DNA of 40,000 nucleotides from an uncultured Bacteroidales bacterium (GTDB lineage Bacteria; Bacteroidota; Bacteroidia; Bacteroidales; UBA932). The notes below the pieces were generated by a model, which saw nothing but the letters and a program-made list of their open reading frames with translations, searched no databases and was not told the DNA's origin. The stretch covers positions 1,211,019 to 1,251,018 of the forward strand of contig OW818649.1 in assembly GCA_942492945.1 (NCBI GenBank), in the 5' to 3' direction. The stretch's first letter is position 1. Every line of letters begins with the position of its first letter. Made by a program: the position numbers and the translations under genes. Positions 21,771-39,429 of this stretch are shown here, piece by piece.

Positions 21771-22052
21771 GTCAGTTGCGAAGGAATTAGTTGTTTAAGA
21801 TGCAATTGTTCAATTGTTTGCAGAAAGTGCTGATGATAAACAATTCAGAGAATAACGGCTAAGAAGAAAGGAGCAGAAGGAGGGAAGAAGTATATATTAT
21901 TAAAGAGACATTAAATTGTAGCTTACAGGAAAAGAGATAATAGACGAAACATACCATTATGAAAGCAACCGCACCCATAACACAAGGTACAGTTCAGCCA
22001 CCCGGCTGCATAAGGTTTATAGGAATAGGGTGGCCGCCCCGTACCCACGTCC
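21764..22052 (+). repeat. ORF-less 289-bp cassette, copy A
   Basis: It starts GTTATGGGT and ends at the next G|TT. It contains no ORF of 60 aa or more. It carries a 30-nt polypurine tract (21861-21890) and its own 85-bp attC. Confidence 0.8.
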
Positions 22053-22059
22053 GTTATGG
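21975..22059 (+). repeat. attC-like site of ORF-less cassette copy A (85 bp)
   Basis: ACCCATAAC is the reverse complement of the cassette start GTTATGGGT. The inner stem is gccaccc/gggtggc. The right core is GTTATGG. Confidence 0.75.
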
Positions 22060-22341
22060 GTCAGTTGCGAAGGAATTAGTTGTTTAAGATGCAATTGTTC
22101 AATTGTTTGCAGAAAGTGCTAATGATAAACAATTCAGAGAATAACGGCTAAGAAGAAAGGAGCAGAAGGAGGGAAGAAGTATATATTATTAAAGAGACAT
22201 TAAATTGTAGCTTACAGGAAAAGAGATAATAGACAAAACATACCATTATGAAAGCAACCGCACCCATAACACAAGGTACAGTTCAGCCACCCGGCTGCAT
22301 AAGGTTTATAGGAATAGGGTGGCCGCCCCGTACCCACGTCC
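22053..22341 (+). repeat. ORF-less 289-bp cassette, copy B (tandem duplicate)
   Basis: Near-identical to copy A by eye (2 substitutions noted) and the same 289-bp length. Confidence 0.8.
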
Positions 22342-22348
22342 GTTATAG
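22264..22348 (+). repeat. attC-like site of ORF-less cassette copy B (85 bp)
   Basis: Same as the copy A site, but the right core is GTTATAG, supplied by the next cassette. Confidence 0.75.
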
Positions 22349-22401
22349 GCAACCATGTTGAAAATCCAGCGAGACTTACAAACTCGAAAACTTTTTAGAA
22401 T

Positions 22402-22836
22402 ATGGAAGAATTCGAAAAGATATTATTGAAAAGCGATTGTCAAAGAAGACTTGAAAAACCAAAGAAAACAATTGAAGAAATTGAAACTCTTATCAGATTT
22501 CAGCTTCCGTTAGACTACAAGAAATTTCTAGAAAATTATGTATGCTTTGAAGGTTCAATAGGTAAAGAATATTTACAACTTTGGAGACTTGAAGACCTTA
22601 CTAATTTGAATGAAAACTATGGAATTTTTGATAACCTAGAAAATACAATTGCAATTGGAGGAAACGGCAGTAGTGAATTCATTGCTATTGAAATAATAGA
22701 TAAAACCAATTATAGAATTGTACTTTCATCATTTATAGACTTAGACAAACAATATCACCTTGAAATAGGAACATCATTTTCAGATTTTCTAACTCGACTT
22801 GACAACGGGAAAGATTGGTTTGGAAATGATGATTGA
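22402..22836 (+). CDS. cassette ORF: SMI1/KNR4 (SUKH-1) family immunity-type protein
   Basis: 144 aa. IEEIETLIRFQLPLDYKKFLENY...IGGNGSSEFIAIE... matches the SUKH/SMI1_KNR4 pattern (LP.DY..FL, then IG.dGgG). No adjacent toxin gene. Confidence 0.7.
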   Translation: MEEFEKILLKSDCQRRLEKPKKTIEEIETLIRFQLPLDYKKFLENYVCFEGSIGKEYLQLWRLEDLTNLNENYGIFDNLENTIAIGGNGSSEFIAIEIIDKTNYRIVLSSFIDLDKQYHLEIGTSFSDFLTRLDNGKDWFGNDD

Positions 22837-22880
22837 TAACATGAAACGGAATATTTTTTGACGACATATAAAACGGCAGC

Positions 22881-23013
22881 CTATAACACGTGGTTAAAAA
22901 TATTGGGGCTGATGCGCAGATAAGCAGGTTTTTAGTACTTTAGTAAAAGTTTAACGTGGAACAGATGTTCGGTTCTTAACGCCCCAACATTTCCAACCAC
23001 GGAAACGTTATGT
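22881..23013 (+). repeat. attC-like site (133 bp)
   Basis: GCCTATAAC is the reverse complement of the cassette start GTTATAGGC (22342). The arms are acgtggttaaaaatattgggg and ccccaacatttccaaccacg. The right core is GTTATGT. Confidence 0.8.
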
Positions 23014-23065
23014 GAAATAAGAAAAAACAACATATATTCAATTTTATTTTCTATCAGTAAAAATT

Positions 23066-23491
23066 ATGGAAACAATTACTCAAATAATTTTATCTTTTCT
23101 TGGTATAATTGGAATTGGTGGTATAGTAACTGCTATTTTCAATAAATCCAAAGAAATTGAATTTCAAAAGCTTGAACAAAAACAACGTCGTTATAAATCA
23201 ATGCTTCTATATATGGATGTTTATTTTGTACCAGAAAACATCAAATATCTATCAAGTCGACAGCCTGATATTCATTCAGCTAAAGATGTCATTGAATACT
23301 TGAAAGCAGAGTATCATGAAATGCTTCTGTATGCCTCAAAAAAAGTAATTCTTTCAGCAAAGAGATTTATTGAAAATCCAAGTAGAGATCTTTTTTTGGA
23401 AGTAATATTGGCTATGAGAGGAGATTTATGGATTAAGAAGTCTGACTTAGACTTAAAAGAACTTGTACTAACTGAAAATAAACAAGAATAA
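23066..23491 (+). CDS. cassette ORF: hypothetical protein with one N-terminal TM helix
   Basis: 141 aa. TM segment IILSFLGIIGIGGIVTAIF. No family recognised. Confidence 0.6.
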   Translation: METITQIILSFLGIIGIGGIVTAIFNKSKEIEFQKLEQKQRRYKSMLLYMDVYFVPENIKYLSSRQPDIHSAKDVIEYLKAEYHEMLLYASKKVILSAKRFIENPSRDLFLEVILAMRGDLWIKKSDLDLKELVLTENKQE

Positions 23492-23510
23492 ATATGAGTT
23501 TTCTTACATC

Positions 23511-23569
23511 ACATAACAGCAGATATGCGGATATGCTTCGCACATCGCATAATCCGCAAATCGTTATAA
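23511..23569 (+). repeat. attC-like site (59 bp)
   Basis: TCACATAAC is the reverse complement of the cassette start GTTATGTGA (23007). The stem is gcggat/atccgc. The right core is GTTATAA. Confidence 0.8.
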
Positions 23570-23591
23570 ACCATTAATTTTGATATACATA

Positions 23592-24221
23592 ATGCGACAA
23601 GCAGTTATTATTTTATTATTATTTATTATTACAATTGATTGTAAAGCTCAGCCTATAGAAATTTTAGAAGAGACAATTTATGAATTGAAATCACCTGATT
23701 TGAATAATTGCCTCGAAAGATATAACCTCATTGCAAATGAAGTGGAATTAATTTACAATCAGGACACTACAAAAATTGAGTTATACCTTCAAATTGAAGA
23801 AAATGGATTAATAAGTAGAGTTAAAAATTTTGATAATGTTCCTGAAGATTTTTATGCATCATATAATGTAATCCGAAGTAAAATAGGTAAAATCATATAT
23901 ATAAGCGAGTATCCACATAGTGGTTCAGGTGATTGGGATCTTGGTTATGAAAACTATTTTGACGAAAAAGGAAATTTAATTGCATTTATTAGAAAATGTG
24001 GCTTTTTCAATGGGGTCTGTGCAGAAGTTATACACGAAAAATCAGAATATTTCTATAATCTGAAACATGTTTTGGTTAAAAAGACTTATGAGATAACTGA
24101 TGAGAATAAAAAACCTTTGAATTATAAAAATTGTATTTTTAATTATCGATACGATTATAAGCAATACCTGACTATAGAAGATTATTTAGAAAAATATAAA
24201 TTTACTAATAACGGTTTATAA
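23592..24221 (+). CDS. cassette ORF: hypothetical secreted protein
   Basis: Signal peptide MRQAVIILLLFIITIDCKAQP. Start moved from TTG 23580 to ATG 23592. The stop codon lies inside the attC left core. Confidence 0.6.
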   Translation: MRQAVIILLLFIITIDCKAQPIEILEETIYELKSPDLNNCLERYNLIANEVELIYNQDTTKIELYLQIEENGLISRVKNFDNVPEDFYASYNVIRSKIGKIIYISEYPHSGSGDWDLGYENYFDEKGNLIAFIRKCGFFNGVCAEVIHEKSEYFYNLKHVLVKKTYEITDENKKPLNYKNCIFNYRYDYKQYLTIEDYLEKYKFTNNGL

Positions 24222-24274
24222 CAGCAGCTTGCCTTCATGCTAGCGCACGAACTGCAAGCCGCAAAACGTTATGG
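24216..24274 (+). repeat. attC-like site (59 bp)
   Basis: GGTTTATAAC is the reverse complement of the cassette start GTTATAAACC (23563). The stem is gcagcttgc/gcaagccgc. The right core is GTTATGG. Confidence 0.8.
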
Positions 24275-24556
24275 GTCAGTTGCGAAGGAATTAGTTGTTT
24301 AAGATGCAATTGTTCAATTGTTTGCAGAAAGTGCTAATGATAAACAATTCAGAGAATAACGGCTAAGAAGAAAGGGGAAGAAGGAGGAAAGAAGTATATA
24401 TTATTAAAGAGACATTAAATTGTAGCTTACAGGAAAAGAGATAATAGACAAAACATACCATTATGAAAGCAACCGCACCCATAACACAAGGTACAGTTCA
24501 GCCACCCGGCTGCATAAGGTTTATAGGAATAGGGTGGCCGCCCCGTACCCACGTCC
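24268..24556 (+). repeat. ORF-less 289-bp cassette, copy C
   Basis: This third copy has the same length and boundaries, with a few substitutions in the polypurine tract. Confidence 0.8.
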
Positions 24557-24563
24557 GTTAGCG
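24479..24563 (+). repeat. attC-like site of ORF-less cassette copy C (85 bp)
   Basis: The left core is CCATAAC and the right core is GTTAGCG, supplied by the next cassette. Confidence 0.75.
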
Positions 24564-24603
24564 GTAATTAGAGATCACGACATAAAACAAAATAAATTAA
24601 TAA

Positions 24604-24864
24604 ATGGAACTACCTAGAGACAGGGTAATAATAGCAGGTGACGTGAGCGATAGAGACGGAATTGGAGTTGAAATTTATCGTGACAACAAGTTAGTAATCG
24701 AAATATTTCGTGATGACACAAAACGGACAAGAACTGTAACACTTTTTCAAAAAGACTTATCATTAGACTTACTCGAAGAAAGTATTGAGATTTTCAAAAA
24801 AGAAGTTCCTTGGGACTTTATTGAATATGATAATAATAATTTAGACAAGAATTTGAGAAAATAA
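24604..24864 (+). CDS. cassette ORF: hypothetical 86-aa acidic protein (copy 1 of 2)
   Basis: The protein is identical to the ORF at 39606-39866. No family recognised. Confidence 0.6.
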   Translation: MELPRDRVIIAGDVSDRDGIGVEIYRDNKLVIEIFRDDTKRTRTVTLFQKDLSLDLLEESIEIFKKEVPWDFIEYDNNNLDKNLRK

Positions 24865-24872
24865 TTAACTAC

Positions 24873-24930
24873 CGCTAACAGCAACTTGCATTCACGCTAA
24901 CGCGCAAACTGCAAGCCGCAACCGTTAGCA
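24873..24930 (+). repeat. attC-like site (58 bp)
   Basis: ACCGCTAAC is the reverse complement of the cassette start GTTAGCGGT (24557). The stem is gcaacttgca/tgcaagccgc. The right core is GTTAGCA. Confidence 0.8.
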
Positions 24931-24954
24931 CCCATACAAAAAAGACAACAAGAA

Positions 24955-25860
24955 ATGAGAGTATTAATAATTCTAATAACAACGCTTTGGATTTTTGGCT
25001 GTTCTAATACTGACAACTCTAAAGGTTCAAAAAATGACAGGTTGAAAACAATCTATAAAAACACTTTACAGATTAATACAGACGTAGTGAATGAAAACGT
25101 ACAATACATTGGCTTTATTGATAAATTTTATTTTTCCAATGAAAATGAAGCATACATTGAACTTTACTTCATTAAAAACGAGATAAATTCTGACGAGTAC
25201 AACAAAATTGTAAAACTTACTGACTCTTTAATTTATGAGGACGATGAAAATAGTAGACACAGATTTCCAGAAAGTTTAGCACCAAAATATTTTGACCTAA
25301 GAGGACTTTCAAAACTTAAAATCTATGACAACAACAATAAATTTGTTTCTAATGCTGACTTTCTTCGTGTAGAGTATTTAAATCAGAATATATCACCTGT
25401 TTTTATAGCTGTGTACAAGACAGAAAAAAAAATCAAAGCTGATAGTTACTATGGGATAAGTAATTTTAGTGGAACATTTGAGACAATGAAATATTTAATT
25501 ACAAAAGATACCATTTTGACACAAAATCTTCTGACAAAACTTAACGAAAAAAGACCTTACTACGGACTTGAAAACAATGGGACTCACTTGCATTTTTCCA
25601 ACAGCGATACAGTTTTATCTGTTATAAATTCTGAGAATTTTGCCTACATAGTCTTGACAACAAGCAATGATTTTAAGGTTCTATATAAAAGTCTTGACTT
25701 TGAAAACGTTTCAGACGTAAAGATTATTCCCCTATCTAATAATAAGTTTCCATACATATTAACGCGGAATGTTAAACCCGAAACTGATGTAATGTGGGAT
25801 AACTTACTGTATTACGATGGGAAAAAATATACAACTACGAACAGACAACGAATTGAATAG
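24955..25860 (+). CDS. cassette ORF: hypothetical lipoprotein
   Basis: 301 aa with a lipobox (LWIFGCSN). No family recognised. Confidence 0.6.
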   Translation: MRVLIILITTLWIFGCSNTDNSKGSKNDRLKTIYKNTLQINTDVVNENVQYIGFIDKFYFSNENEAYIELYFIKNEINSDEYNKIVKLTDSLIYEDDENSRHRFPESLAPKYFDLRGLSKLKIYDNNNKFVSNADFLRVEYLNQNISPVFIAVYKTEKKIKADSYYGISNFSGTFETMKYLITKDTILTQNLLTKLNEKRPYYGLENNGTHLHFSNSDTVLSVINSENFAYIVLTTSNDFKVLYKSLDFENVSDVKIIPLSNNKFPYILTRNVKPETDVMWDNLLYYDGKKYTTTNRQRIE

Positions 25861-25866
25861 TACGGG

Positions 25867-25918
25867 TGCTAACAAAGGCTATATGCCATAAACGGCACAT
25901 AGCCCCAAATCGTTATGG
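25867..25918 (+). repeat. attC-like site (52 bp)
   Basis: GGGTGCTAAC is the reverse complement of the cassette start GTTAGCACCC (24924). The stem is ggctatatgcc/ggcacatagcc. The right core is GTTATGG. Confidence 0.8.
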
Positions 25919-25963
25919 GCAATGGCAAATTCCGCAAATAATCTAAAATACATATAACGAAAT

Positions 25964-26275
25964 ATGAAAAAATATGCAATTTTAACTTTTACTGCCGAAG
26001 ATATGACTTACGGATCAGCTCCAAGTAAATCTGGTCCAGCAAGATTAAATCAAGGAGAATTTAATTCTTCACATAGACGGTCTGATAAAACCGTTGAAGA
26101 TTTAATACGAAATGAAGATGGGAGCATTAGACAATTCACTTCTCAAGTGAGCGCTTTGAATTACTGTGTCGATAATGGTTGGAATCTCGAGCAAACTTTA
26201 TTTGAACCTCATGATGGTTATAATGCAAGAGAACCTCTCAGTAACTATATATTTATATTGTCGAGAGAAAAATAA
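25964..26275 (+). CDS. cassette ORF: hypothetical 103-aa protein
   Basis: It is the only ORF in its cassette and is co-oriented with the array. No family recognised. Confidence 0.55.
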   Translation: MKKYAILTFTAEDMTYGSAPSKSGPARLNQGEFNSSHRRSDKTVEDLIRNEDGSIRQFTSQVSALNYCVDNGWNLEQTLFEPHDGYNAREPLSNYIFILSREK

Positions 26276-26300
26276 ATGCAATTCGTTCAATTACTAAAGC

Positions 26301-26355
26301 CCATAACACGCGTTAAATCCCATTGAAACGGGATTTAGCCGCTGAACCGTTGGCG
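26301..26355 (+). repeat. attC-like site (55 bp)
   Basis: GCCCATAAC is the reverse complement of the cassette start GTTATGGGC (25912). The stem is taaatccc/gggattta. The right core is GTTGGCG. Confidence 0.8.
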
Positions 26356-26406
26356 GCAAGGCTGAGAGACAGTGCAAACTTGAACCAATAGACATAAAAA
26401 CTATAT

Positions 26407-27258
26407 ATGGAAATGCTAGTTGAGACAGCAGTAATAAATGGGATAAAGTATATAAAGGACGAAAACGAACATGTCTTTCTTGTACCTGTTACAAAGTTAG
26501 GTGACTTTCGTGCCATTGACTTACCAAGTCAATCAAGTTTACATGTAACGGGAATAGACCTTAATGACTTATCTCTTTATTTTTCAGTTGTTCACGGTGG
26601 CAATGGCTATGCATCAATATTTATCCTGTTTTCAATTCAATGTAACGATTATTCGGAAGGTAGTAGGCGAATTCACGAGACAGTTAATGCCATTGCAACA
26701 ATTGCATCCCCAAATTACCTTGACACTCCACGAATTGGGGCTGACCAGAACGACGATAACATGTGGAAACATTACGTTACTTACAGTTTTGATGAAGAAT
26801 TGTCCTGCAAAATAATTGTAAGAGAACTGGCAGAACAGATAATTTATGCATTGACAAATGCTAAACCAAGTATTCAAGCATTCCTTTGTCATTCTTCTGA
26901 AGATAAGCATATTGTAGAGCAATTTGCTTATAGACTTCGTTCAACAAAAAGCTATGTATGGTTTGACAAATGGGAAATTAAAGTTGGAGATAGTATTGTT
27001 GAAAAAATAAATGAAGGATTAGAGAAAATGACTCACTTGATTATTTTTTTATCAAAATCATCTGTTAATAAGCCTTGGGTGAAAAAAGAATTATCATCAG
27101 CATTAATGAGAAAACTAGAAGACAACTCTGTTAGGGTAATGCCGATAAAAATTAATGAATGTGATATTCCTGTAATAATAAAAGACATTAAATATGCTGA
27201 TTGCACGGAAGATTTTGAGAGTGGATTTAGTCAACTAATTGCTGACATCACAAACTAA
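26407..27258 (+). CDS. cassette ORF: TIR-domain protein with an unknown N-terminal domain
   Basis: The C-terminal roughly 125 aa read AFLCHSSEDKHIVEQFAYRLRS...VWFDKWEIKVGDSI...IIFLSKSSVNKPWVKKELSSAL, a bacterial TIR pattern that includes the conserved Glu (codon 27088-27090). The N-terminal roughly 155 aa were not recognised. Confidence 0.75.
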   Translation: MEMLVETAVINGIKYIKDENEHVFLVPVTKLGDFRAIDLPSQSSLHVTGIDLNDLSLYFSVVHGGNGYASIFILFSIQCNDYSEGSRRIHETVNAIATIASPNYLDTPRIGADQNDDNMWKHYVTYSFDEELSCKIIVRELAEQIIYALTNAKPSIQAFLCHSSEDKHIVEQFAYRLRSTKSYVWFDKWEIKVGDSIVEKINEGLEKMTHLIIFLSKSSVNKPWVKKELSSALMRKLEDNSVRVMPIKINECDIPVIIKDIKYADCTEDFESGFSQLIADITN

Positions 27259-27307
27259 ACATTATAGAACACGAATGACTATTAAACATCAGACTAACAA
27301 TAGCCCA

Positions 27308-27423
27308 GCCGCCAACACACAATATAAAACAGTTGGGGTTCACTGGTTTGCGAGGGTTTGGTTCTCGCGCCAGCATTCTTGTCGGTGGACAAGAACGCAG
27401 CCCGAAAACCCAACCGTTTCATA
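27308..27423 (+). repeat. attC-like site of the TIR cassette, 5' part (interrupted by a group II intron)
   Basis: GCCGCCAAC (27308-27316) is the reverse complement of the cassette start GTTGGCGGC (26349). The left arm tataaaacagttggggtt matches the reverse complement of aaacccaaccgtttcata (27406-27423). Confidence 0.6.
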
Positions 27424-29372
27424 GTGTGCCGAGAAGCAGAACAACGGCAAAAGAACGTTCTGCATGCTGTAATTGAGATGGTGGAAACAGTTTAAGTTGG
27501 CCCACCGATGCCGTCTTACAGGAGGGGGCATCAAACCACCTGAAGGTGCTTTGGTAAAGAGCCATGGTGCTGAGCGTTCAGGTTAAAAGTTGCACTATTA
27601 GTGTGGCTTGGTATGAATAAAGGAGTTGAACGAAAGTGAATCGCTGATGAGGTGTCGAGAAGTTGCCACACCCTGTCAAAAGCTACAGGGCTGAGCGTAA
27701 AAAACAGTCCAGGGAACTGTTTTTGCGAAGAGCCAAGCCGGTGGGCTGCGAACGGAGTTATAAGTTTAGCGGATACCTGATTTACTGGCTAAGCGGCAGG
27801 CGTCATACAGGCGACAAGACCTTTATTCAGGCTTAATTACGGAACTCGGGAACCTGCACGACAATGCCAAGGGAGGAACACAATGGGATCACCCCAGAGG
27901 TTTAAAACCGAAGAGCCGTGCAGGGACGGACTAACCCGTATTAGTGATGAAGTTCCTGTAATGGGAATGGAGCGAAGGGGTTAGGTTATACAGTATCATA
28001 ACATTTAACAACTCGCAAGAGGATGACTTTATGGAATGAGACAAGATCAGTACCGGTAAGCAAGGAACAAGTATGGCTTGCTTACAAGAAAGTGCGTTCC
28101 AACCAAGGGAGTGCCGGAGTCGACCAGATCAGCATGGAAGAATATGATGCAGAACGGTCTAAGCACTTGTACAAACTATGGAACAGGATGGCATCGGGGA
28201 GTTATTTTCCCCCACCTGTCAAAGAAGTTGAGATACCTAAGAAAGACGGTAAAGTCCGCAAACTTGGAATCCCAACCATCAGCGACCGTGTTGCACAAAT
28301 GGTCATCAAGGAATACCTTGAACCAAGGTTCGAACAAATATTCAGCCCGCACTCATACGGTTACCGTCCTGGCAAGAATGCCCATCAGGCGTTGTCTGCG
28401 GTCCGGGCAAACGTGCGAATGCTGGATTGGGCAATAGACCTTGACATTAAAGGTTTCTTCGACAATATTGACCACGAGAAGCTGATGCTTGCGTTGAAGA
28501 AACATGTAAACGAGAAGTGGTGCCTTATGTACATTAAGCGGTGGTTACAGACACCCGTGCAAACGATAACCGGAGAGCTAGTAGCGAAGCATGGGAAAGG
28601 TACACCACAGGGAGGAGTGATAAGCCCATTACTGGCCAACCTGTTTCTTCATTACGCCATGGACAAATGGTTGGAGAAAACCCACTCTGCGGTGAGGTAC
28701 GTGCGTTATGCCGATGATGCGATACTGCACTGCAAGAGCAAAGAACAGGCTGACTATGTGTTGCGCAACCTGAACAAACGGATGAGACAGTGCGGACTTG
28801 AACTGCACCCTGAAAAGACAAAGCTTGTTTACTGTAGGGACTACAGACGACAAGGTGAGTACTCGAATGTTAAGTTCGATTTTCTTGGGTACTCGTTTCA
28901 GCCTCGCACAGCAAAGTCGAAGAGGGACGGGGCACTGTACCTCGGCTACGACTGCGCCATCAGTATTAGTTCAAAGAAGCGTATTGCAGAAAAGATGAGA
29001 GAACAGGACATTGACCACCTGACGCACAAAAGCATAGTAGGGGTTGCCCAATTTCTGGAGCCGTATATCAGGGGATGGATCAATTACTACGGAAAGTTCA
29101 GGTTATGGGAGATGAATACGGTCTTTCAGCTTTTACGAAGACGGCTTGTAATGTGGGCACGGAAACGGTACAAGCGTTACAAGACGAGTATTAACCGGGC
29201 CTATAGTTGGCTTGAAAGAGTTAAAGAACAATATCCGACATTGTTTTACCAATGGAGGGTAGGTTTCTCGTAATGAATTGCTTAGATTTGTATAACAAGA
29301 GCCGTGTGATGGGAGACTATCAAGCACGGTTCTGTGAGAGGCTGGAGGGGAAGTTCCTCCGGCCTACTCGAC
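27424..29372 (+). mobile_element. group II intron (bacterial class C-like, no endonuclease domain) inserted in an attC
   Basis: The 5' end GTGTG lies about 600 nt upstream of the RT ORF in GC-rich structured sequence. Domain V is gagccgtgtgatgggagactatcaagcacggttc (29299-29332). The domain VI hairpin has a bulged A 7 nt from the proposed 3' end (..cctActcgac). The boundaries were set by hand and are accurate to within a few nt. Confidence 0.75.
28023..29273 (+). CDS. group II intron reverse transcriptase/maturase
   Basis: 416 aa with RT motifs (GVDQIS, IPKKDGKVRKLGIPTISDRV, GYRPGKNAHQA, TPQGGVISPLLANL, the YADD box in RYADDAILHC) followed by a maturase X domain (GWINYYG). There is no HNH/En domain. 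Confidence 0.9.
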   Translation: MTLWNETRSVPVSKEQVWLAYKKVRSNQGSAGVDQISMEEYDAERSKHLYKLWNRMASGSYFPPPVKEVEIPKKDGKVRKLGIPTISDRVAQMVIKEYLEPRFEQIFSPHSYGYRPGKNAHQALSAVRANVRMLDWAIDLDIKGFFDNIDHEKLMLALKKHVNEKWCLMYIKRWLQTPVQTITGELVAKHGKGTPQGGVISPLLANLFLHYAMDKWLEKTHSAVRYVRYADDAILHCKSKEQADYVLRNLNKRMRQCGLELHPEKTKLVYCRDYRRQGEYSNVKFDFLGYSFQPRTAKSKRDGALYLGYDCAISISSKKRIAEKMREQDIDHLTHKSIVGVAQFLEPYIRGWINYYGKFRLWEMNTVFQLLRRRLVMWARKRYKRYKTSINRAYSWLERVKEQYPTLFYQWRVGFS

Positions 29373-29388
29373 CCGCAAAACGTTATGT
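29373..29388 (+). repeat. attC-like site of the TIR cassette, 3' part with right core GTTATGT
   Basis: ccgcaaaacGTTATGT resembles the 3' arms of the attCs at 24259-24274 and 24916-24930. GTTATGTGCC starts the next cassette. Confidence 0.6.
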
Positions 29389-29408
29389 GCCATGTTAAAA
29401 CAAACCCC

Positions 29409-29978
29409 ATGAAATTGATACTGACAATTTTTATAAGCTTATGCTCTCTGACAATTTATTCGCAGACAAATGATTTCTTTCCAACAAAAATTAATTGTAG
29501 CAAGGAGATATCTGGAGTTTCAAAGGATTATTGTATTTATGATTTAGGCGATCATATTCTTCTCGTTGGATTTAATACTAATAATTTAATAGCAATGATT
29601 AAATCCAAAAAGTCAAAGGATCTTGGATTTGTGTATGATGAGACAACTTCTGACGCTATGATTATTAAGCCAAAATTCTTTGAAAGCACTGACAAGAAAA
29701 TTATTGTCATAATGCTTGAACTTGCAGCTGAATATAGCTGGGGACAAAAGATTGTTATGATTAAGAATGACAAGGTTTATGATTGTGGCTTCCTGGATTA
29801 TATGACAAATGAGAATAATGGAGAATCGATTGCAAAATATGCGATACTAAAACAAGTAAATGGACAAATCGTTCTAACTTTTCAGCCACAAGACTTCGCA
29901 GACAAGGATGAAAGAATTGTTAAATCGCAAACTTTGAAATATTTACTAACGGATAAAGGATTAAAACAGATAAAATAA
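29409..29978 (+). CDS. cassette ORF: hypothetical secreted protein
   Basis: Signal peptide MKLILTIFISLCSLTIYSQ. Start moved from 29334, because the upstream part of the track ORF runs through intron domain VI and the attC. Confidence 0.6.
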   Translation: MKLILTIFISLCSLTIYSQTNDFFPTKINCSKEISGVSKDYCIYDLGDHILLVGFNTNNLIAMIKSKKSKDLGFVYDETTSDAMIIKPKFFESTDKKIIVIMLELAAEYSWGQKIVMIKNDKVYDCGFLDYMTNENNGESIAKYAILKQVNGQIVLTFQPQDFADKDERIVKSQTLKYLLTDKGLKQIK

Positions 29979-29986
29979 AACACGGC

Positions 29987-30116
29987 ACATAACATCATAT
30001 AAATTTTATTGGGGCGGAATTGCTGATTTTAAAGAGCTTGCTTCTAATTTAGCTCTTAACGTACCGACAAGAAATCGCTTCGTAATCCCCAACAAATTTT
30101 ATATGTAACGTTAGGC
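29987..30116 (+). repeat. attC-like site (130 bp)
   Basis: GGCACATAAC is the reverse complement of the cassette start GTTATGTGCC (29382). The arms are catcatataaattttattgggg and ccccaacaaattttatatg. The right core is GTTAGGC. Confidence 0.8.
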
Positions 30117-30129
30117 GGCATATTAACGA

Positions 30130-31522
30130 ATGAAGAAAGGACCAACAACATATACGACAATAAGAGAAATTGATATCAATTTGGATATTGATGTTTTCTT
30201 ATTGAATTCGCGAATTTTTACCACGACAGATTTAAGTATAGTTGATAAACATCACAAATCAGAAAAAGGGAAAAAGTATTTATGCATTAGTATTCAAATT
30301 CAACTTGACGATTTTGAATCCGTGTCTGACGGTGCCGCGTATGCAAGGCCACGATTTTTAATAATTTTAGGCATATTGACTTTCTTAACTCAAGAACTAT
30401 TTACACCATTCGAGTTTTTTAGTAATTCAACAGTCGTTGGAAATCTAAAAAGAGGTAAACGAAATAAATTCAAATTTAATAAGTCAAACTACTTGTCTGA
30501 CTTCAATAAAATTGTGGCCCTTACAGAATCTCAAAATGAAAATGAAAAAAAGGCTCTTCTATTCTCTGATAGATCGATACCGAAAAGCCCTATACTTGGA
30601 AAAGGAAAGTGCAGAAAACATGATACATGATGATGAGGTTCTTCTTTCACACTTTCACATTCTAGAACTACTCTCAACCAAATACTATGCTAGACAAAAG
30701 GAATTAGCAACTCAATCGATTAAGCAATTCTCAGAGAATATACTCAAAGACATTTACCTATTAGAAGGCAATCAGCTTCAATCAGAACAGAGTTCCAAAA
30801 GCAAACTCATTGAAAGTATTCTCATCTCTGAACTGCCGGTTGCAAGCAAAATAATGTTCATGTTTCAAGAACAAGGCATTTTAACGCATCGTCTCAAAGC
30901 CTTCATTTCAGACTTGGTAAAAGATCGCAACTCAGTTGCACATGGTAGACATGTTTATCAGGAAAGGGTCATTTTCCCAGTACCTCCTTTCTTTCCGCTA
31001 ATTAGAAACAGAGAATATTCTTTTGAAATGCTTAGAATTTTATCAGGTAGGTCAATCGCTTCGTTCTTGAATCTGGATTATTTAGACGAAGAATGGGCCG
31101 AATTGGGCTTACCTCCTTCCATTGATGAGCTGAATAAATTTATTAGTGAAAAGCGATTTGAAAAAATTAAAATTGACGATTTTTATGCTGGCAATGACAA
31201 CGATATTACACCCTATACATTTGCGTACTACTTGCTAAATAAAAAACTGAAAATAGAAAACGCCATAATTGCTCTATCTGACACTATTTTGAAATACAGG
31301 AAAATTGAAGATGAGATAACACAGATTGTCTTGGCTGTGGTCTTAATCGTTGACAAAGCAAAAGGTGAATTAAAAAATAAATGTATTGAAATCATAAAAC
31401 TTTCCTCTGAAAATCGCTGGTTACCTGACTTTAAAATGAGAGATGTCTTGTATTATCTTGAATATTTAGGACACGAGCCAAAGACACTTCGAGAAATGAT
31501 AACAAAACGAGAGATTAGATGA
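30130..31522 (+). pseudogene. cassette gene for a HEPN-motif (RNxxAH) protein, split by a frameshift in an A7 run (alternatively two separate ORFs, 30130-30630 and 30512-31522)
   Basis: Two overlapping ORFs lie in adjacent frames. The frames switch at aaaaaaa (30545-30551), and removing one A would fuse them into one ORF of about 464 aa. The downstream part carries LVKDRNSVAHGRH (Rx4H at 30926-30943). Confidence 0.5.
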
Positions 31523-31531
31523 AATACGACC

Positions 31532-31662
31532 GCCTAACATGGGTTTTGCGTTAGTGGGCGGACAGTGCGACTAGTAACATTTGAGCAATTAATAAACGTT
31601 GGTGCTGCCAGACAGTTTTCGGTTTCAAAAGCCCACCAACGCAAAGCCCGAAACCGTTAGCG
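31532..31662 (+). repeat. attC-like site (131 bp)
   Basis: CCGCCTAAC is the reverse complement of the cassette start GTTAGGCGG (30110). The arms are atgggttttgcgttagtgggc and gcccaccaacgcaaagccc. The right core is GTTAGCG. Confidence 0.8.
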
Positions 31663-31704
31663 GTTATGCTAAAAAAACGACACACAGTCAAACAACTATG
31701 ATAA

Positions 31705-32103
31705 ATGAAAATTGAATTTGACATACCTGATGAAAAAGTTCAAGACCTTAACATAAATGGCAGGTCTGAACTGACTCGACATTGTAAACAGTGGACCGAG
31801 GACATCATTGATGAAGCAACAAGGATTGAAGCTAGCAGAAATGATGGAACAAGTATTGAGATTACTGCTGCAATAATAAGTGAAGCAGCAACTTATTCTA
31901 AAAGATTTCCATTAAAAAAGAAAATAAAATGGTGGTTAAAAGCAATCCAAGTAACAGCTTTTATTTCTTCTTTATTAGCAGGAAGTCTACTTGATATAGA
32001 AAAATTCAAAGAGACAAGCCATGTTATTTGGTTTATCGCAACTTTATTTGTAGCAGTTGCAACCACTGTTTATTTAACTTTTAACTCTGAGAAAAATGGA
32101 TAA
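31705..32103 (+). CDS. cassette ORF (gene 1 of a two-gene cassette): small protein with two C-terminal TM helices
   Basis: 132 aa with TM segments AIQVTAFISSLLAGSLL and VIWFIATLFVAVATTVYLTF. Its stop overlaps the start of the next ORF by 8 nt. Confidence 0.6.
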   Translation: MKIEFDIPDEKVQDLNINGRSELTRHCKQWTEDIIDEATRIEASRNDGTSIEITAAIISEAATYSKRFPLKKKIKWWLKAIQVTAFISSLLAGSLLDIEKFKETSHVIWFIATLFVAVATTVYLTFNSEKNG

Positions 32104-32824
32104 GAACTATATATATGAAAAGCTGACTCCATCAGCAAAAGAAGCATTGAATGAAACAATACAGGAGCTTCATGACTTGTTGATTTCGAGAGCGAATTCA
32201 ATAGCTCAAAAGGGACAAACTGCTGACAAAGAAATCTCATTAAGGGACATAATTGAAGCAAAAGAATCATTATTCAAAGCCAAATTGGATAAGGAAAAAT
32301 CTGACTATAGACGTAAAAGAATGATGACCCTCATTTCCTTAACTGGTGCCTTATATTCTATAATTGGAATATTTGTTTATATATATCAAAATCAAGATTT
32401 TGTATTAGAGAAAAATCTTGGACTTATAATCATACTAACTGGCATTATGACAATATTTGTGGGATTTGTTTATTTTCAATTATCTAGAAAATCAGATGAA
32501 AAGTCTAAAGATTTAGATATGGATTATAGCAGTTCTGACAGTGATTTCGATATAATAAAACGTTGGCAAATAATTGAAAAATTGGGAAGCAATTTAATGA
32601 GACAACGTGGATTTTCAAATAATGAATCAAAATCAATAAATGATATTTTAAAGTTTCTTTCATTTGAGCTAAAAGATGAAATGTTATACATTGAAATGAG
32701 AGAGCTTTTATCGATACGAAATAGAATTTTACATGAAGGTTATGAATTGACTCGAAATGAGAAACAATTATATTTAAATAAAGCCGAAAAGATAATTGAA
32801 TTACTCGAAAAACTAGAAAGATAA
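32096..32824 (+). CDS. cassette ORF (gene 2): membrane protein with a C-terminal HEPN-like RNxxxH motif
   Basis: 242 aa with two central TM helices. The C-terminal region reads ELLSIRNRILHEG (Rx4H at 32717-32734). Confidence 0.6.
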   Translation: MDKNYIYEKLTPSAKEALNETIQELHDLLISRANSIAQKGQTADKEISLRDIIEAKESLFKAKLDKEKSDYRRKRMMTLISLTGALYSIIGIFVYIYQNQDFVLEKNLGLIIILTGIMTIFVGFVYFQLSRKSDEKSKDLDMDYSSSDSDFDIIKRWQIIEKLGSNLMRQRGFSNNESKSINDILKFLSFELKDEMLYIEMRELLSIRNRILHEGYELTRNEKQLYLNKAEKIIELLEKLER

Positions 32825-32833
32825 AGCACAAAC

Positions 32834-32962
32834 CGCTAACACGCGGTATAGCCAATAAGGGTTTCAGAGGTATGCGAAGGGTTGTAGCCCACCTCAAAGT
32901 TCGTTGTAACTTGACAGGAAATCGCCCGCAATCCCTTACTGGCCATACCGCCACCGTTGAAG
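32834..32962 (+). repeat. attC-like site (129 bp)
   Basis: AACCGCTAAC is the reverse complement of the cassette start GTTAGCGGTT (31656). The arms are cgcggtatagccaataaggg and cccttactggccataccgcc. The right core is GTTGAAG. Confidence 0.8.
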
Positions 32963-33006
32963 GGCATTAAAACAAATATCATCTTATAAAACAACGTAAT
33001 AAAAGA

Positions 33007-33561
33007 ATGGAACAATCAAATAGATCTTTGGAAGAACTAAGAAAGAAGAAATGGTCCTATGTTTTTTTGCATGGCTCTGTTTATTGGGGATTACCTGTTG
33101 CAATTATTGCGTTTGTATTTAATAGCGACTTTGAAATTGAGAACATGCATATTTCAAGATTCATACTATTTGTAATAGTATTTATGATTACGGGAATATT
33201 CACAGGAATTATGCAATTTAAGCAAATAGAGAAGGTTCGTTTAAGGCAAAATGACAATGAGGAAATTACACAAGGAATTCAGATAATAAAATCCGGGAAC
33301 TTATGGAGTTATGAGAGTTTGAATATTTACATGGAGAATATTGAAACCCTACTCGTTCAAAATGAAAAATTCTGGTTTGAAGGGAATACATCTCCTGAAA
33401 GAATTAATGAATGTTTTAATGTAGTTTTGGAAGATTTTCAACAATTACAAAAAAACACTAGTTTTAATGAATTCACAAGAACCCTTGAAGTGAAAGTCCA
33501 GATATTTGATAATTCTGGGAGTAAGTTTCTTTTGTTTGAAAAAGTAATTAGTAAAAATTAA
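33007..33561 (+). CDS. cassette ORF: hypothetical protein with two TM helices
   Basis: 184 aa with TM segments VYWGLPVAIIAFVF and FILFVIVFMITGIFTGIMQF. No family recognised. Confidence 0.6.
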   Translation: MEQSNRSLEELRKKKWSYVFLHGSVYWGLPVAIIAFVFNSDFEIENMHISRFILFVIVFMITGIFTGIMQFKQIEKVRLRQNDNEEITQGIQIIKSGNLWSYESLNIYMENIETLLVQNEKFWFEGNTSPERINECFNVVLEDFQQLQKNTSFNEFTRTLEVKVQIFDNSGSKFLLFEKVISKN

Positions 33562-33565
33562 CGCC

Positions 33566-33627
33566 CTTCAACACAGGCTAAAAGTCAAGCGGGAAAACAC
33601 GCCAGCTTTTAGCCTGAAACGTTGTGT
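33566..33627 (+). repeat. attC-like site (62 bp)
   Basis: GCCCTTCAAC is the reverse complement of the cassette start GTTGAAGGGC (32956). The stem caggctaaaag/cttttagcctg is perfect. The right core is GTTGTGT. Confidence 0.85.
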
Positions 33628-33774
33628 TTCATGCTAAGAGAGACCGTGCAACAAATGCCAACGCACATTTGGCACATTTGCAAGCCCAAACCCACAAGCC
33701 GATGCTTCAGCTTGCAAAAGAGCCAAATTTTTGCCGACGCACTTCGCTGAGTTATAAAGAATAGAGTTTAAAAT

Positions 33775-36700
33775 ATGATAAAACTTAATTGGAATATATT
33801 TAAAGCAAAATTTGATGGACAAGAGACATCTATGTTCGAATTGTTAGCCTACCATCTATTTTGCGATGAATATAATATTCCAACTGGTATTTTTAGATTC
33901 AAAAACCAGACAGGAATAGAAACAGAACCAATTGAAAGAGATGGAGAATTGATTGGTTTTCAAGCGAAATTTTATGAATCAAAAGTTTCAGATAACAAGG
34001 ACGATATTATTGATTCCTTAAAAAAAGCAAAATCAAAAAATAAAGACTTAGATAAGATTCTTTTTTATCTAAATCAAGAGTTTTCAGAAAGTTCGAGTAA
34101 AGAAAAGAAAGACCCTAAAAACAAAATTGAAATTGAGGAAGAAGCTGAAAAATTAAATATTAAGTTAATATGGAAAGTCCAAAGTAATTTTGAGATTCAA
34201 CTTGCAAAACCCTCTATTTCATATTTAAGTGAGTACTTTTTTAGTAATGAAAAATCAAAAGTTGATTCACTAAAAGAGTTAGGTTTCCACGCCAAAAGTA
34301 TTTTAACTCCAATTCACTGTGATATAAAGTTTAAAGATGATAGAATTAAAATTGACAGGAACGAATTATTAATAGAAATAGAGTCTCAATTAAATACATC
34401 CAAATCAATTATAATTAGTGGAAATGGCGGGACTGGTAAAACAGCTTTAATAAAAGAACTTTATGATAGAAACAATGATAAGCCCTTTTATATTTTTAAA
34501 GCTAATGAATTTTTGGTAAAGCATATTAATGACTTATTTAAACCTTACTCTTTTACATTTGGGGACTTCTTGGATTGCCATGAAAATGAAACATCAAAGA
34601 TAGTTATAATTGATTCTGCCGAAAGATTATCTGAGATTGATAATAATGAACCGTTTAAAGAGTTTGTTGCTTCTTTAATTGAAAAAGATTGGTGCATTAT
34701 TTTCACAACAAGAAACATTTATCTTGATGATTTACGGTTTCAACTCATCCATGTATACAGATTGTCACCTAGGAATTTAAATTTAGAAAATTTGACGGAA
34801 GAAGAGCTAGATAAATTAGCTATAGATTATGGTTTTGTAATTCCTCCTGAAATAAGATTACGGCGGCTGATACGAAATCCCTTCTACCTAAATCAGTATT
34901 TGAATTTTTATTCTGTAGATAGTCAAAAGGCAAGCTATTCTGATTTCAAAACTAATCTGTGGAAAATTAAGATTCAAAATTCAACATACACAAAGAACAA
35001 TTTGCATATTGAAAGGGAAGAATGTTTTTTGTCTCTAGCAAATGACAGAAGCAAGAGTGGTAACTTCTATTCAAAAGGTGAAAGTTGTTCTCAGGAAGCC
35101 TTGTCTTTACTTCAACTTGAAGAAATTATTGAATATAGTTCATCAAATTCAGGATATTTCATTACTCATGACATATATGAGGAATGGGCTCTTGATTTAA
35201 TAATTGAAAAAAACTATCAAGAACATAAAGGAAATGTAGACCTGTTTTTTAAAGAACTTGGTACTTCGCTTTCAATTCGAAGAGCTTTTAGATTGTGGAT
35301 TACAAATACAATAATTATTAACCCGAATGATGTAGAAGAAATAATTGAAGAAGTAATCTATTCAAGTATTATTGATGCTTCATGGAAAGACGAAGTTTTA
35401 ATATCCATATTACTTTCAGAAATGTCTAATACTTTCTTTGAAGAAAGGAAAGTATTACTGTTCAAAGATGATTTCAAGCTTTTAAAAAGAATCATTTTCT
35501 TGTTAAGAACAGCTTGTAAGGAAGTTAATGAATCATTGATGAGGGTTTTAAAAGGTAATGATGAAGATATAAGTCCAGAATATATTTTTACAATACCCAA
35601 AGGTTCTGGGTGGTGTGCTATAATTAATTTGGTCTACAGTGAACTTGAATCTTTTAAAATTGAAGATGTGTCATTCTTAATTCCGTTGCTTAAAGAATGG
35701 AATGATGAATTTAAAACAGGTATTGTTACAAGAAGTTCAACTAAAATAGCTTTAAAGTTTTATGAGGATATTACTTCCGAAAAGGAAGCATATAGATATT
35801 CCGATTTATCAACAGACTTGGTGAAAATTATAATTCAAGGAGCTAATGAAGTCACAAAAGAATTACGCATAATATTTGAACAAGTAATTAAAAACAAGTG
35901 GTATAAGCATAGTTCACCCTATAACAAACTTTGTAAAGATATACTTACAAAGACTAATGAAAACATCCCAGTCATTAAAGCGTTGCCAATTGAAGTCATG
36001 AAACTAGCTGATTTATTCTGGTTTAATCATGATACTGAAGATGATAGGTTTGGCTACGGAGGGATTGATATGGAACAATATTATTCGTTGAATAAAAATG
36101 GCTTAGATTACTATCCTACAAGTGCTTTACAAACTCCTATTTACTGGTTACTTCGTTTCTCTCCAAAGGATACTTTTGATTTCATCATAAGTTTTACAAA
36201 TAAAGCTGTAGAAGCTTTTTCTAAATCAAAATATGGTGATACTGTTGAATTAATTGATATTCATCTTGATAATGGTAAAATACAAAAACAATTTGTAAGT
36301 GATGCAATATGGTCAATGTATAGAGGAACAGGTTCACCAGTGACCCCAAAAGTATTACAGTGTATTCATATGGCACTAGAAAAATACTTATTAGAAACTG
36401 CTAAATTTGATGATAATGGCAATCTTTCAGGTTGGTTTAAATATTTAATACGGAACTCCAAATCTGCTTCAATAACAGCTGTTGTTGCCAGTGTTGTAAT
36501 TGCGAATCATGATAAGTATTATGATACAGCCGAAATACTTTTTAAAACACTTCAATTATTCTCGTATGATATGCAACGTGTATTATCAGAGCATATCGCC
36601 AAGTTTATGTATGGTATGGGCTATGGCTTAAATCAGAGGCACAAAACTTTCGCTGATGAAAGAGTTAAAACTTTAGAAGACCCTCAGAGGAAAGTATCAT

Positions 36701-39419: not shown

Positions 39420-39429
39420 AAAATACGGT

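Follow-up and report, generated by a model that had tools for sequence, protein, structure and literature searches.

A class C (IIC) group II intron splits an integron attC site, in the same orientation as the cassette genes, in the 40,000-nt stretch of Bacteroidales DNA analysed here (the window). We hold with good confidence that this endonuclease-less intron was reverse-spliced into the top (cassette-sense) strand of the attC. attC sites are single-strand hairpin recombination sites. The attC introns known so far lie antisense to the cassettes, in competition with the integrase for the bottom strand. If top-strand insertion is correct, the non-recombinogenic attC hairpin would be a biologically used structure, and the intron would provide a natural test of how replication orientation controls access to single-stranded hairpins. 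It would also represent a route to fused or locked cassettes in environmental (Bacteroidota) integrons carrying defence genes such as the TIR cassette described below.

A complete-looking class C intron

A first-pass annotation, made from the sequence alone, had placed an intron of ~1.95 kb between the two halves of the attC of a TIR cassette. All of its coordinates hold, as do the GTGTG 5' end, the RT/maturase without an En domain, domain V and a domain VI with a bulged A. The features of the element are as follows.

27424..29372, + strand: group II intron, class C (IIC), 1949 nt; Rfam matches and end-to-end homology with relatives elsewhere
27480..27611, + strand: domain I motif, Rfam RF01999 (group-II-D1D4-2), 91.8 bits, E = 1.5e-17
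27688..27752, + strand: structured ~65-nt insert in place of the EBS1 loop, from alignments with relatives
28023..29273, + strand: RT/maturase ORF, 416 aa, YADD motif; RVT_1 and GIIM; TIGR04416
29299..29332, + strand: domain V, from the RF00029 alignment
29334..29372, + strand: domain VI, in which the A at 29366 is the bulged branch point; from the RF00029 alignment and the sequence read directly

The intron opens with GTGTGCC at 27424 and closes with ...CTACTCGAC at 29372. Both ends carry the conserved group II termini (5' GUGYG, 3' AY), here GTGTG and ...GAC. About 35 homologous introns align with it exactly from first base to last, while their flanks are without homology. In the Rfam search RF00029 (domains V/VI) matched 29297-29372 with 65.2 bits. 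With these boundaries the flanks reconstitute a palindromic attC.

A domain search of the 416-aa RT/maturase returned only the Pfam domains RVT_1 and GIIM, with no endonuclease domain found, and the protein scored 413 bits against TIGR04416. Its best solved relatives are the IIC RTs 6ar1, 7uim, 5hhl and 5hhj (E ~1e-46 to 1e-48), whereas the IIA and IIB RTs (LtrA, T.el4h) match at only ~1e-35. Because IIC RTs outscore those of the other classes, and because the protein combines RT and maturase without an endonuclease, we assign it to class C. Collectively, the element is a complete-looking IIC intron. It is single-copy in the source genome, no further copies being found in the complete 3.53-Mb contig.

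The intron sits behind an attC top-strand hairpin

The flanks of the intron carry the parts of one attC, and these parts, with those of the neighbouring cassettes to which they pair, are listed here.

26349..26356, + strand: R' core GTTGGCGG, which belongs to the preceding attC and marks where the TIR cassette begins; exact reverse complement of the R'' at 27309-27316
26407..27258, + strand: cassette ORF, 283 aa, with a C-terminal TIR domain (Pfam TIR_2, E = 4.5e-27)
27309..27316, + strand: R'' core CCGCCAAC in the attC of the TIR cassette; its complement is the core at 26349-26356
27323..27423, + strand: attC top-strand hairpin, seen when the 5' flank was folded as DNA by itself and when the two flanks were joined
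29373..29381, + strand: unpaired attC spacer CCGCAAAAC, 9 nt, which opens the 3' exon; 7-10 nt in relatives
29382..29388, + strand: R' core GTTATGT; GTTATGTGC recurs as its reverse complement at 29985
29984..29993, + strand: R'' (GGCACATAAC) of the next cassette; reverse complement of GTTATGTGCC in the right half

Joining the left flank to the right attC half (29373-29388, the spacer CCGCAAAAC plus R' GTTATGT) gives an imperfect palindrome of 130 nt, in line with the ~130-bp site that the first-pass annotation had reconstituted and with the neighbouring attCs of 52-136 nt. The array shows the hallmarks of attC sites, namely RYYYAAC...GTTRRRY cores, cassette-specific complementarity, a palindrome and G|TT boundaries, and the complementary cores form chains along it. 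The target is thus an integron attC site, which would be recombined by the array's 283-aa recombinase. This recombinase, of 283 aa and below the cut-offs for IntI, is atypical, so recombination of the bottom strand is assumed by analogy.

The polarity of the site was read from a duplicated cassette of 372 nt, present at 24556-24927 and again at 39558-39929 and bounded on both sides by CGTTA. Its attC lies at the 3' end and it breaks at the 3' GTT; therefore the + strand is the attC top strand. The R''/R' consensus was rejected as a polarity marker, the pattern being symmetric under reverse complement. The intron and the cassette ORFs are both on the + strand. Together with the Rfam and RT matches, this polarity bears out the earlier reading of a class C intron that lies in an attC and is sense to the cassettes. 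With the crossover position taken from the duplicated cassette, the cassette boundary falls at G29382|T29383. The insertion point, between the 3' arm of the hairpin and the spacer, is 10 nt before this G|TT crossover, as had been estimated from the sequence.

The hairpin consists of a 5' arm (27323-27340), a branched variable region and a 3' arm (27407-27423). The last four bases of the 5' exon, CATA (27420-27423), are IBS1, and C29373 is IBS3. When the 5' flank was folded alone, the full hairpin formed and left CATA unpaired; in the DNA folds the distance from the end of the hairpin to the insertion site was 0-4 nt. The pattern by which IIC introns choose their sites, a stem-loop directly 5' followed by a short EBS1-IBS1 pairing and IBS3, is found throughout the lineage, with the window copy lacking a normal EBS1 loop. 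The + strand from the TIR ORF to the intron contained no terminator-like site.

The joined site may not be an original one. Recombination between two intron copies in different attCs, with deletion of the intervening cassettes, has been reported around Kl.pn.I3 (PMC5027574), and by the same route the right half, CCGCAAAACGTTATGT, would not be the original partner of the left hairpin. Multi-copy and tandem introns do occur among the relatives, and the 16-nt right half carries nothing that ties it to the left. However, the genome now holds only one intron copy, the joined site is normal in architecture and length, and no observation requires a deletion. We regard such a chimeric attC as improbable.

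Relatives share the target position

To find out whether copies elsewhere also prefer such sites had been proposed in the first-pass annotation. The source genome holds none, and those in other genomes and metagenomes strongly prefer attC sites. Relatives at 71-98% RT identity come mostly from Prolixibacteraceae and other Bacteroidota, and ~50 related copies sit at the equivalent attC position, after the hairpin and 7-10 nt before GTTRRRY. Among the sites of relatives, 22 of 25 have a GTT 7-10 nt past the intron (~6% expected), and the 9-mer complement of the R' core is found again downstream, as the R'' of the next cassette, in 10 of 23 (~0.3 expected). The GTT spacing also holds in five of seven extra sites, an even sample of the order, and among the 95-98% identical copies in all seven sites with a readable 3' exon (six of them different). 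In the relatives 92% of the flanking ORF length runs in the direction of the intron. The target consensus of the lineage is NTR|Y; the window site reads ...TCATA|C, 9 nt before R'. In minimum free energy (MFE) folds of the 5' exons the last paired base was 0-12 nt from the insertion site (mode 4), a noisy measure that lends weak support.

The copies in attC top strands form one clade (support 95/96), with the IIC introns that follow terminator-like sites outside it, among few IIC outgroups. The clade includes dozens of sites, EBS1 retargeting, ORF-less derivatives and tandem copies. One identical 416-aa RT, 98% identical to that of the window, was found on 16 contigs, and its intron occupies at least four different attCs, all ending in ...CATA|. 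On this sequence evidence the window copy belongs to a recently active sub-lineage. The window array itself contains a vacant site of the same kind.

32829..32965, + strand: unoccupied attC homologous to attCs that this lineage occupies in other genomes, from a colinear alignment and a motif scan

This site aligns colinearly with the joined flanks of three occupied loci (L064, L010b and L034), and the motif scan places its empty cognate sequence, CATA|CCGCCACC GTTG, from 32944. Among the attC ends of the window array, at least two carry a cognate CATA|Y site that is empty (21752 and 32944).

These data bear on whether an ordinary IIC intron simply landed by chance behind a terminator-like hairpin, with the attC context a coincidence. 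IIC introns generally insert after stem-loops (PMC4424553); in the outgroup, the 3' exon of a Neochlamydia IIC intron opens with a T-run and one Persicobacter copy lies within a palindrome. Against this, more than 30 independent sites of the clade share the equivalent attC position, with cassette-specific core complementarity and co-oriented cassettes. Chance insertion is effectively refuted, and we consider it extremely unlikely.

Comparison with known integron introns

Canonical IIC-attC introns lie on the bottom strand, opposite to cassette transcription (PMC3001079), at the target consensus TTGT|T in R'' (PMC7923331). The statement in the first-pass annotation that described attC introns are antisense to the cassettes is therefore correct, with sporadic sense precedents. 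The kinship it had suggested with these introns stands in part: the window intron does lie within an attC, but it is on the + strand like the cassette ORFs, and its site is TCATA|C, 9 nt before R', rather than TTGT|T at R''. It belongs to a consistently top-strand clade that is probably separate. Like S.ma.I2, Ge.s.I1 and Kl.pn.I3 (Quiroga 2008; Leon & Roy 2009-2010; PMC3001079), the window lineage combines a class C ribozyme with an endonuclease-less RT/maturase, uses a folded attC hairpin as the 5'-exon stem-loop with short IBS1 and IBS3, splits an integron recombination site, and is found in integrons and in integrase-less attC clusters. In contrast to these introns, which are antisense on the bottom strand and need their own promoters, it is sense on the top strand. 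Its sites are NTR|Y at the junction of hairpin 3' arm and spacer, 7-10 nt before R', instead of TTGT|T inside R'', and its hosts are mainly Bacteroidota with an atypical short integrase. Since canonical introns are antisense to the cassettes, they would not be able to splice from array read-through, whereas the window intron could.

The window lineage might nevertheless be a strand-switched branch of the canonical clade (S.ma.I2 type) and not a lineage adapted independently to attC. The two have their class, an endonuclease-less RT and the association with attC in common, and the literature notes occasional sense-oriented attC introns (PMC9229058; PMC7923331, citing Rodriguez-Martinez 2012). 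However, the target of the window lineage, NTR|Y at the L'/spacer junction, differs from TTGT|T inside R'', the IIC-attC introns being compared here by description only. The RT has no more than 53% identity with the plasmid-borne RTs that were found. The best plasmid matches (Serratia, Salmonella, Enterobacter) were not located in integrons. We rate a strand switch as less likely than not, though more likely than a chimeric attC.

Among the sense precedents, an IIC intron in an E. cloacae class 1 integron (Rodriguez-Martinez, Nordmann & Poirel 2012, via PMC7923331) and a class C intron in Shewanella algae KC-Na-R1 (PMC9229058) are single reported cases in Proteobacteria, unlike the window clade with its dozens of sites. 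The third, UHB.I2 (PMC7923331), is a group IIB intron (IIB1/CL1). It and the class E introns in arrays (PMC9229058) are also sense and at or next to an attC; they differ from the IIC window element in ribozyme and IEP class and are described as homing by longer base pairing. The window intron further resembles the terminator-targeting IIC introns (B.h.I1; Robart 2007; Toor 2006, via PMC4424553), which in that account use a stem-loop in single-stranded DNA, an IBS1 of 3-5 nt directly after it and IBS3, and which are endonuclease-less and rely on replication for priming. Unlike their target, a terminator hairpin with a T-run that shields the intron from read-through, the attC hairpin in the window has no T-run, so that read-through into the intron is expected. 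Taken together, the sequences suggest a IIC lineage dedicated to the attC top strand. Such a lineage is little described, the published sense cases being isolated. What appears new is the consistently top-strand clade; antisense IIC-attC introns and isolated sense cases were already known.

EBS1-IBS1 pairing and the insert in the window copy

Across the lineage there is covariation between a 4-nt EBS1 loop and the four bases that end the 5' exon. The pairs are UAUG/CAUA, UACA/UGUA, UAAG/CUUA or CUUG, CAAG/YUUG and UGCC/GGUA. Pairing is seen in 28 of 34 cells for the two variable positions, compared to a shuffle mean of 20.1, and the observed value was reached in 2 of 10,000 shuffles. The lineage provides a natural set of EBS1/IBS1 variants for studying IIC target choice. 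IBS3 is C or U almost everywhere, and because it is nearly invariant EBS3 was not located by covariation. The EBS1 and EBS3 pairings with the flanks, which the first-pass annotation had proposed to identify, were in this way recovered for EBS1 in the lineage and not for EBS3; the window copy has other sequence in place of the EBS1 loop.

The replacement is the structured ~65-nt insert at 27688-27752. Relatives at 95-98% RT identity that are without the insert read GGAGUAUG here, with the loop GAGUAUGAA, and more distant relatives have GAGUAUGUGA at this position. The stem that flanks the insert (GCUACA / CGGAGU) is retained. The insert is unique in the source genome and otherwise shared only with the metagenome locus L047, whose intron sits in a different attC that also ends in CATA|; all other members have a normal EBS1 loop.

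Two candidates for a replacement EBS1 were considered. The first, the conserved GGUAUGAAU (27610-27618), with the complementary UAUGA at 27612-27616, was unconvincing because it does not vary among relatives whose exon ends differ. The second, (G/U)GUGG, lies within the insert in a 4-nt loop whose stem shows an apparently compensatory change, and was no more convincing.

Because the insert replaces the EBS1 loop, the present ability of the window copy to splice or move is uncertain. The copy may be a dead or crippled fossil, inserted with a UAUGA EBS1 cognate to TCATA, which then lost the loop to the ~65-nt insertion, no longer splices or moves and is merely carried in the array. The insert is without UAUG. 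In the nearest relatives that lack the insert, 1-4% divergent, the loop is UAUGA and the intron follows (T)CATA. The copy is single in its genome, the empty cognate sites in the window array fit an immobile copy, and the host does not need splicing because the intron is intergenic. On the other side, L047 has the same insert at another attC, and the ORF, domain V and domain VI are intact. Between the window and L047 copies dN/dS is 0.06, and the ribozyme parts differ by 3.7% versus a dS of 0.30, which suggests ongoing selection on both RT and RNA. The L047 argument is weakened by the finding that in every segment the window copy is nearer to the insert-less copies than to L047, so that the insert may have spread by recombination. 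We rate a fossil as a serious possibility that falls a little short of an even chance.

Proposed mechanism and replication context

Top-strand insertion, our preferred reading, would proceed as follows. The lineage would recognise the attC top-strand hairpin as its 5'-exon stem-loop, and the EBS1 loop (4-5 nt) would pair with 4-5 exon bases at or just past the end of the hairpin, (T)CATA in the window. Insertion would then occur at the junction of the hairpin 3' arm and the unpaired spacer. The layout of attC sites puts this junction 7-10 nt before the R' GTT in every case. Being co-oriented, the intron would be part of the array transcript and could be spliced from read-through RNA. In DNA it puts 1.95 kb between L' and R', and the integrase should then be unable to use the attC; the TIR cassette would be fused with the intron and the following cassette into one excisable unit.

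More broadly, it is more probable than not that Bacteroidota-type integrons host their own dedicated IIC clade. Such a clade would home to the top-strand attC hairpin (the lagging template in sedentary integrons), ride cassette transcription in sense, retarget via the 4-nt EBS1 loop and spawn ORF-less mini-introns and tandem copies. It would freeze or fuse cassettes and hitch-hike in a composite cassette, and the ~65-nt module could replace the EBS1 loop and persist at more than one site.

Cumulative GC skew of the source genome is lowest at 0.75 Mb and highest at 2.6 Mb, and the window (1.21-1.25 Mb) is on the rising arm. The + (top) strand is therefore the lagging-strand template in this one genome. 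A lagging-strand template would offer the single-stranded hairpins and the Okazaki primers that an endonuclease-less intron needs. Chromosomal integrons are known to have an orientation bias (PMC8946536), and the replication orientation of the window agrees with it.

Boundaries and class of the intron

Read directly from the sequence, the intron starts at 27424 with GTGTGCCGAG, and its last base is 29372, the end reading ...GGCCTACTCGAC. An Rfam search at gathering thresholds placed the group II domain I motif RF01999 at 27480-27611 (91.8 bits) and the domain V/VI model RF00029 at 29297-29372 (65.2 bits), the latter alignment ending exactly at 29372. Together with domains V and VI, these results define an intron of 1949 nt, in agreement with the ~1.95 kb of the first-pass annotation, which had also reported domain V and the bulged A of domain VI.

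Features of the ribozyme
27424-29372, + strand, group II intron
29299-29332, + strand, domain V
29334-29372, + strand, domain VI, with A29366 bulged

The sole long ORF within the intron (28023-29273, 416 aa) contains RVT_1 (E = 2.7e-42) and the group II maturase domain GIIM. No domain was found past these two, indicating a reverse transcriptase (RT) without an endonuclease domain, as first described. The RT scored 413 bits against NCBIfam TIGR04416 (cut-off 300). Its top structural homologues were all class C, namely 6ar1 (the GsI-IIC RT), 7uim (the E. rectale IIC holoenzyme), 5hhl and 5hhj, at ~1e-46 to 1e-48, whereas LtrA (IIA) and the T.el4h RT (IIB) matched at only ~1e-35.

The intron splits an attC on its top strand

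The cassette array fills the window from ~20.4 kb to its end. Each of its intergenic palindromes has a core ending AAC first and a core beginning GTT last, and within a cassette the AAC core is always the reverse complement of the opening GTT core. For the TIR cassette, GTTGGCGG (26349-26356) matches CCGCCAAC (27309-27316); the core 3' of the intron, GTTATGTGCC (from 29382), matches GGCACATAAC (29984-29993). When 27309-27423 is joined to 29373-29388, the result is a site of 130 nt in which R'' is followed by a 6-nt spacer, a long imperfect hairpin (branched at its tip), a 9-nt spacer and R'. Removal of the intron thus restores an attC-type site, as had been proposed, and its cores match the neighbouring cassettes. 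When the 5' flank was folded alone it formed the entire hairpin, with CATA alone unpaired ahead of the intron. The empty attC at 32829-32965 of the window has homologues that are occupied in other genomes, and it is colinear with their joined flanks (...ggccata↓ccgccaccGTTGAAGG compared to ...tttcata↓CCGCAAAACCGTTGG; arrow, insertion point), showing that insertion adds the intron and nothing else.

The core pattern is symmetric under reverse complement and was rejected as a marker of polarity; a duplicated cassette was therefore used. Positions 24556-24927 are identical to 39558-39929. The identity opens at CGTTAGCGG, the upstream hairpins differing between the two copies, and continues across the ORF and the hairpin behind it as far as ...CCGTTA, beyond which the copies diverge. 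This assigns the hairpin to the cassette's 3' end and the exchange to the 3' GTT. It follows that the attC top strand is the + strand, which carries the ORFs and the intron alike, confirming the sense orientation claimed initially.

The attCs at 20400-40000 are asymmetric, with 1-6 unpaired nt from R'' to the hairpin and 5-9 nt from the hairpin to R', which puts the extra bases on the L'-R' arm. In classical attCs the extrahelical bases are on the R''-L'' arm. This asymmetry may be tied to an atypical short recombinase. A 283-aa tyrosine recombinase (19381-20232) is located at the array head, co-oriented with the array. Its match to the integron-integrase model covers positions 9-177 and 240-313 only, the gap indicating that the IntI-specific segment is missing; the top-scoring model for this recombinase was XerA/integron-integrase, below cut-off.

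Related introns form a lineage that occupies attCs

No second copy was found in the window's genome (one contig, 3.53 Mb). Sampling one genome per species yielded 37 loci whose RTs share 54-89% identity with the window RT, mostly from Prolixibacteraceae and other Marinilabiliales/Bacteroidales, with a few from MAGs labelled Smithella, Cloacimonadota, Thermoclostridium or Ilyobacter. Nucleotide homology of the relatives to the window intron begins at base 1 and ends at the final base. A preference for attCs extends to these copies: GTTRRRY was present 7-10 nt 3' of the intron at 22 of the 25 sites whose 3' exon could be read (the exceptions being one degenerate GTC and two with a second intron directly following), and the 9-mer complement of the 3' core reappeared downstream as the R'' of the next cassette at 10 of 23 sites (~0.3 by chance). 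In the 5' flanks, ...TAAC cores lie 100-200 nt upstream and lead into long imperfect palindromes, and the flanking ORFs amount to 19,470 aa on the intron strand compared to 1,610 aa opposite. An even sample of the order contained the lineage in 17 of 200 genomes, with GTT at 8-9 nt in five of seven additional readable 3' exons. RTs up to 98% identical were found in a large protein database, one of them on 16 contigs. On the contigs fetched for three RTs 95-98% identical, the introns occupy at least six different attCs, all ending ...TT(C/T)ATA↓, then 8-10 nt, then GTT.

The RT tree groups the attC-top copies in a single clade (support 95/96), with a long-branched Persicobacter intron as its sister. 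Outside it fall IIC introns from Neochlamydia and from Serratia, Salmonella and Enterobacter plasmids, none of which is located in an attC; the 3' exon of the Neochlamydia intron opens with a T-run.

By definition, group IIC-attC introns are a monophyletic part of class C; they enter the attC bottom strand, against the direction of cassette transcription and for the most part at TTGT↓T in R'' (PMC3001079, PMC7923331). They are antisense and depend on their own promoters (PMC3001079). The window element shares their class and attC association but differs from their published descriptions in strand and motif. Sense-oriented attC introns in the literature are isolated cases: from E. cloacae, a IIC intron described as unusual (Rodriguez-Martinez 2012, cited in PMC7923331); from S. 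algae, a single class C intron (PMC9229058); and IIB and class E introns (PMC7923331, PMC9229058). We found no description of a Bacteroidota clade of top-strand attC IIC introns in a literature search that had most subscription journals outside its reach. Collectively, the boundaries, cores, polarity and relatives' sites support the first-pass interpretation of a sense-oriented group II intron in an attC, and the element is a member of a top-strand, sense-oriented lineage of attC-targeting IIC introns.

ORF-less mini-introns of the lineage, of 371 nt and 621 nt, were also observed (L010:6711-7081; L038:4849-5469; L037:4851-5456, which reaches the locus end). One occupies a second attC, with a full-length copy 1.9 kb upstream of it. 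The other is head to tail, directly behind a full-length intron, and the attC spacer and GTT core (cataaacc GTTACAT) appear only after the second intron. On Persicobacter sp. JZB09 plasmid 8, the sister intron (L048:1507-3843) abuts the 3' end of another group II intron, of D1D4-3 type, and has tagcaagc GTTATTC on its own 3' side, possibly a further tandem pair at an attC-like site. Stops or frameshifts interrupt the RT genes at L007, L016, L026, L034, L038, L039, L041 and L049, indicating that the lineage includes many decaying copies.

Target choice by EBS1 and the attC hairpin

In an alignment of domain I from 18 relatives, a 6-bp stem (GCUACG/CGGAGU or GCUGUA/UGCAGU) closes a 10-nt loop, G-A-G-NNNN-U-G-A, whose NNNN pairs with the final four exon bases.

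EBS1 loops and the exon ends (IBS1) they face
UAUG: CAUA or UAUA
UACA: UGUA
UAAG: CUUA or CUUG
CAAG: YUUG
UGCC: GGUA

All four positions pair in 12 of the 18 copies and three in the remainder. With 17 of the 18 copies entered, 28 of 34 cells pair at the two variable EBS1 positions, compared to a shuffle mean of 20.1; 2 of 10,000 shuffles reach 28, in a type of test that relatedness inflates. The pairings with the flanks raised in the first-pass annotation were thus borne out in part: covariation with the exon end in the relatives identifies the loop as EBS1, and EBS3 could not be located in this way since the first 3'-exon base is C or U almost everywhere.

The constant distance from intron to GTT is best explained by the build of the attCs, in which R'' is followed by a short spacer and R' preceded by one of 5-9 nt, rather than by a length measured by the intron. 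The intron takes the hairpin/spacer junction, which is the site-choice logic of ordinary IIC introns (PMC4424553), here applied to the attC top-strand hairpin. An unusually long attC family (~190-200 nt; conserved ...caacaccgccaatycgtctttgacgat...cccgcactccactt(a/g)↓) was seen ~200 nt upstream of introns at L007, L020, L021, L023, L024 and L038. Its repeated occupants have EBS1 UAUG, mismatching the exon end CUUA/G at one position.

The replication strand was examined in one genome, that of the window. Cumulative GC skew has its minimum at ~0.75 Mb and maximum at ~2.6 Mb, placing the window (1.21-1.25 Mb) on the rising arm, where the + strand has leading-strand composition. The parental + strand is therefore the lagging-strand template, and the attC bottom strands are on the leading-strand template, an arrangement reported in PMC8946536 (citing Loot 2017) as predominant in sedentary chromosomal integrons. 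Top-strand hairpins would then sit where single-stranded DNA and Okazaki primers are available, conditions that suit endonuclease-less introns (PMC4424553).

The window copy has an atypical EBS1 region

The window copy carries ~65 nt (27688-27752) where its closest relatives read GGAGUAUG. One long and one short hairpin are predicted in this insert, and the flanking stem is retained. The insert had no other occurrence in the window's genome, and a metagenome scan with 21 nt of it returned one contig, L047, whose intron is 94% identical to the window copy (RT 96%) and has the same insert. The L047 site is a different attC, also ending ...CCATA↓, then tacctgtcc GTTATGA. In every segment the window copy diverges less from insert-less copies (0.4-4.2%) than from L047 (2-7%), so the distribution of the insert is at odds with the rest of the intron; these divergences suggest that it likely moved by recombination between intron copies. 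Between the window copy and L047, dN/dS is 0.06 (dS 0.30) and the ribozyme parts differ by just 3.7%, which argues for continued selection. No convincing substitute EBS1 was found in the window copy. Elsewhere in the array, two attC ends (21752-21759 and 32944-32951) carry the cognate CATA↓Y, in each case with 7 more nt before GTT, and both are empty. The function of the window copy is uncertain, with roughly even chances that it still splices or moves. The L047 cassette array also contains a DUF805 RNA motif (Rfam, 73.6 bits; L047:5176-5241).

Predicted expression and effect on the integron

No terminator-like site was found on the + strand from the TIR ORF to the intron or within the intron, so array transcripts should, judging from sequence, run into the intron. 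The attC hairpin would then be the 5'-exon stem-loop in RNA. In DNA the intron places L' and R' 1.95 kb apart; the bottom-strand hairpin would thus be unable to form its R box, and the integrase can probably no longer use the split attC. Excision would have to take the TIR cassette, the intron and the next cassette in one piece. In another metagenome, a cassette for a TIR_2-domain protein follows a 95% identical intron (L071:2682-3779); defence-type TIR cassettes are recurrent beside this intron lineage.
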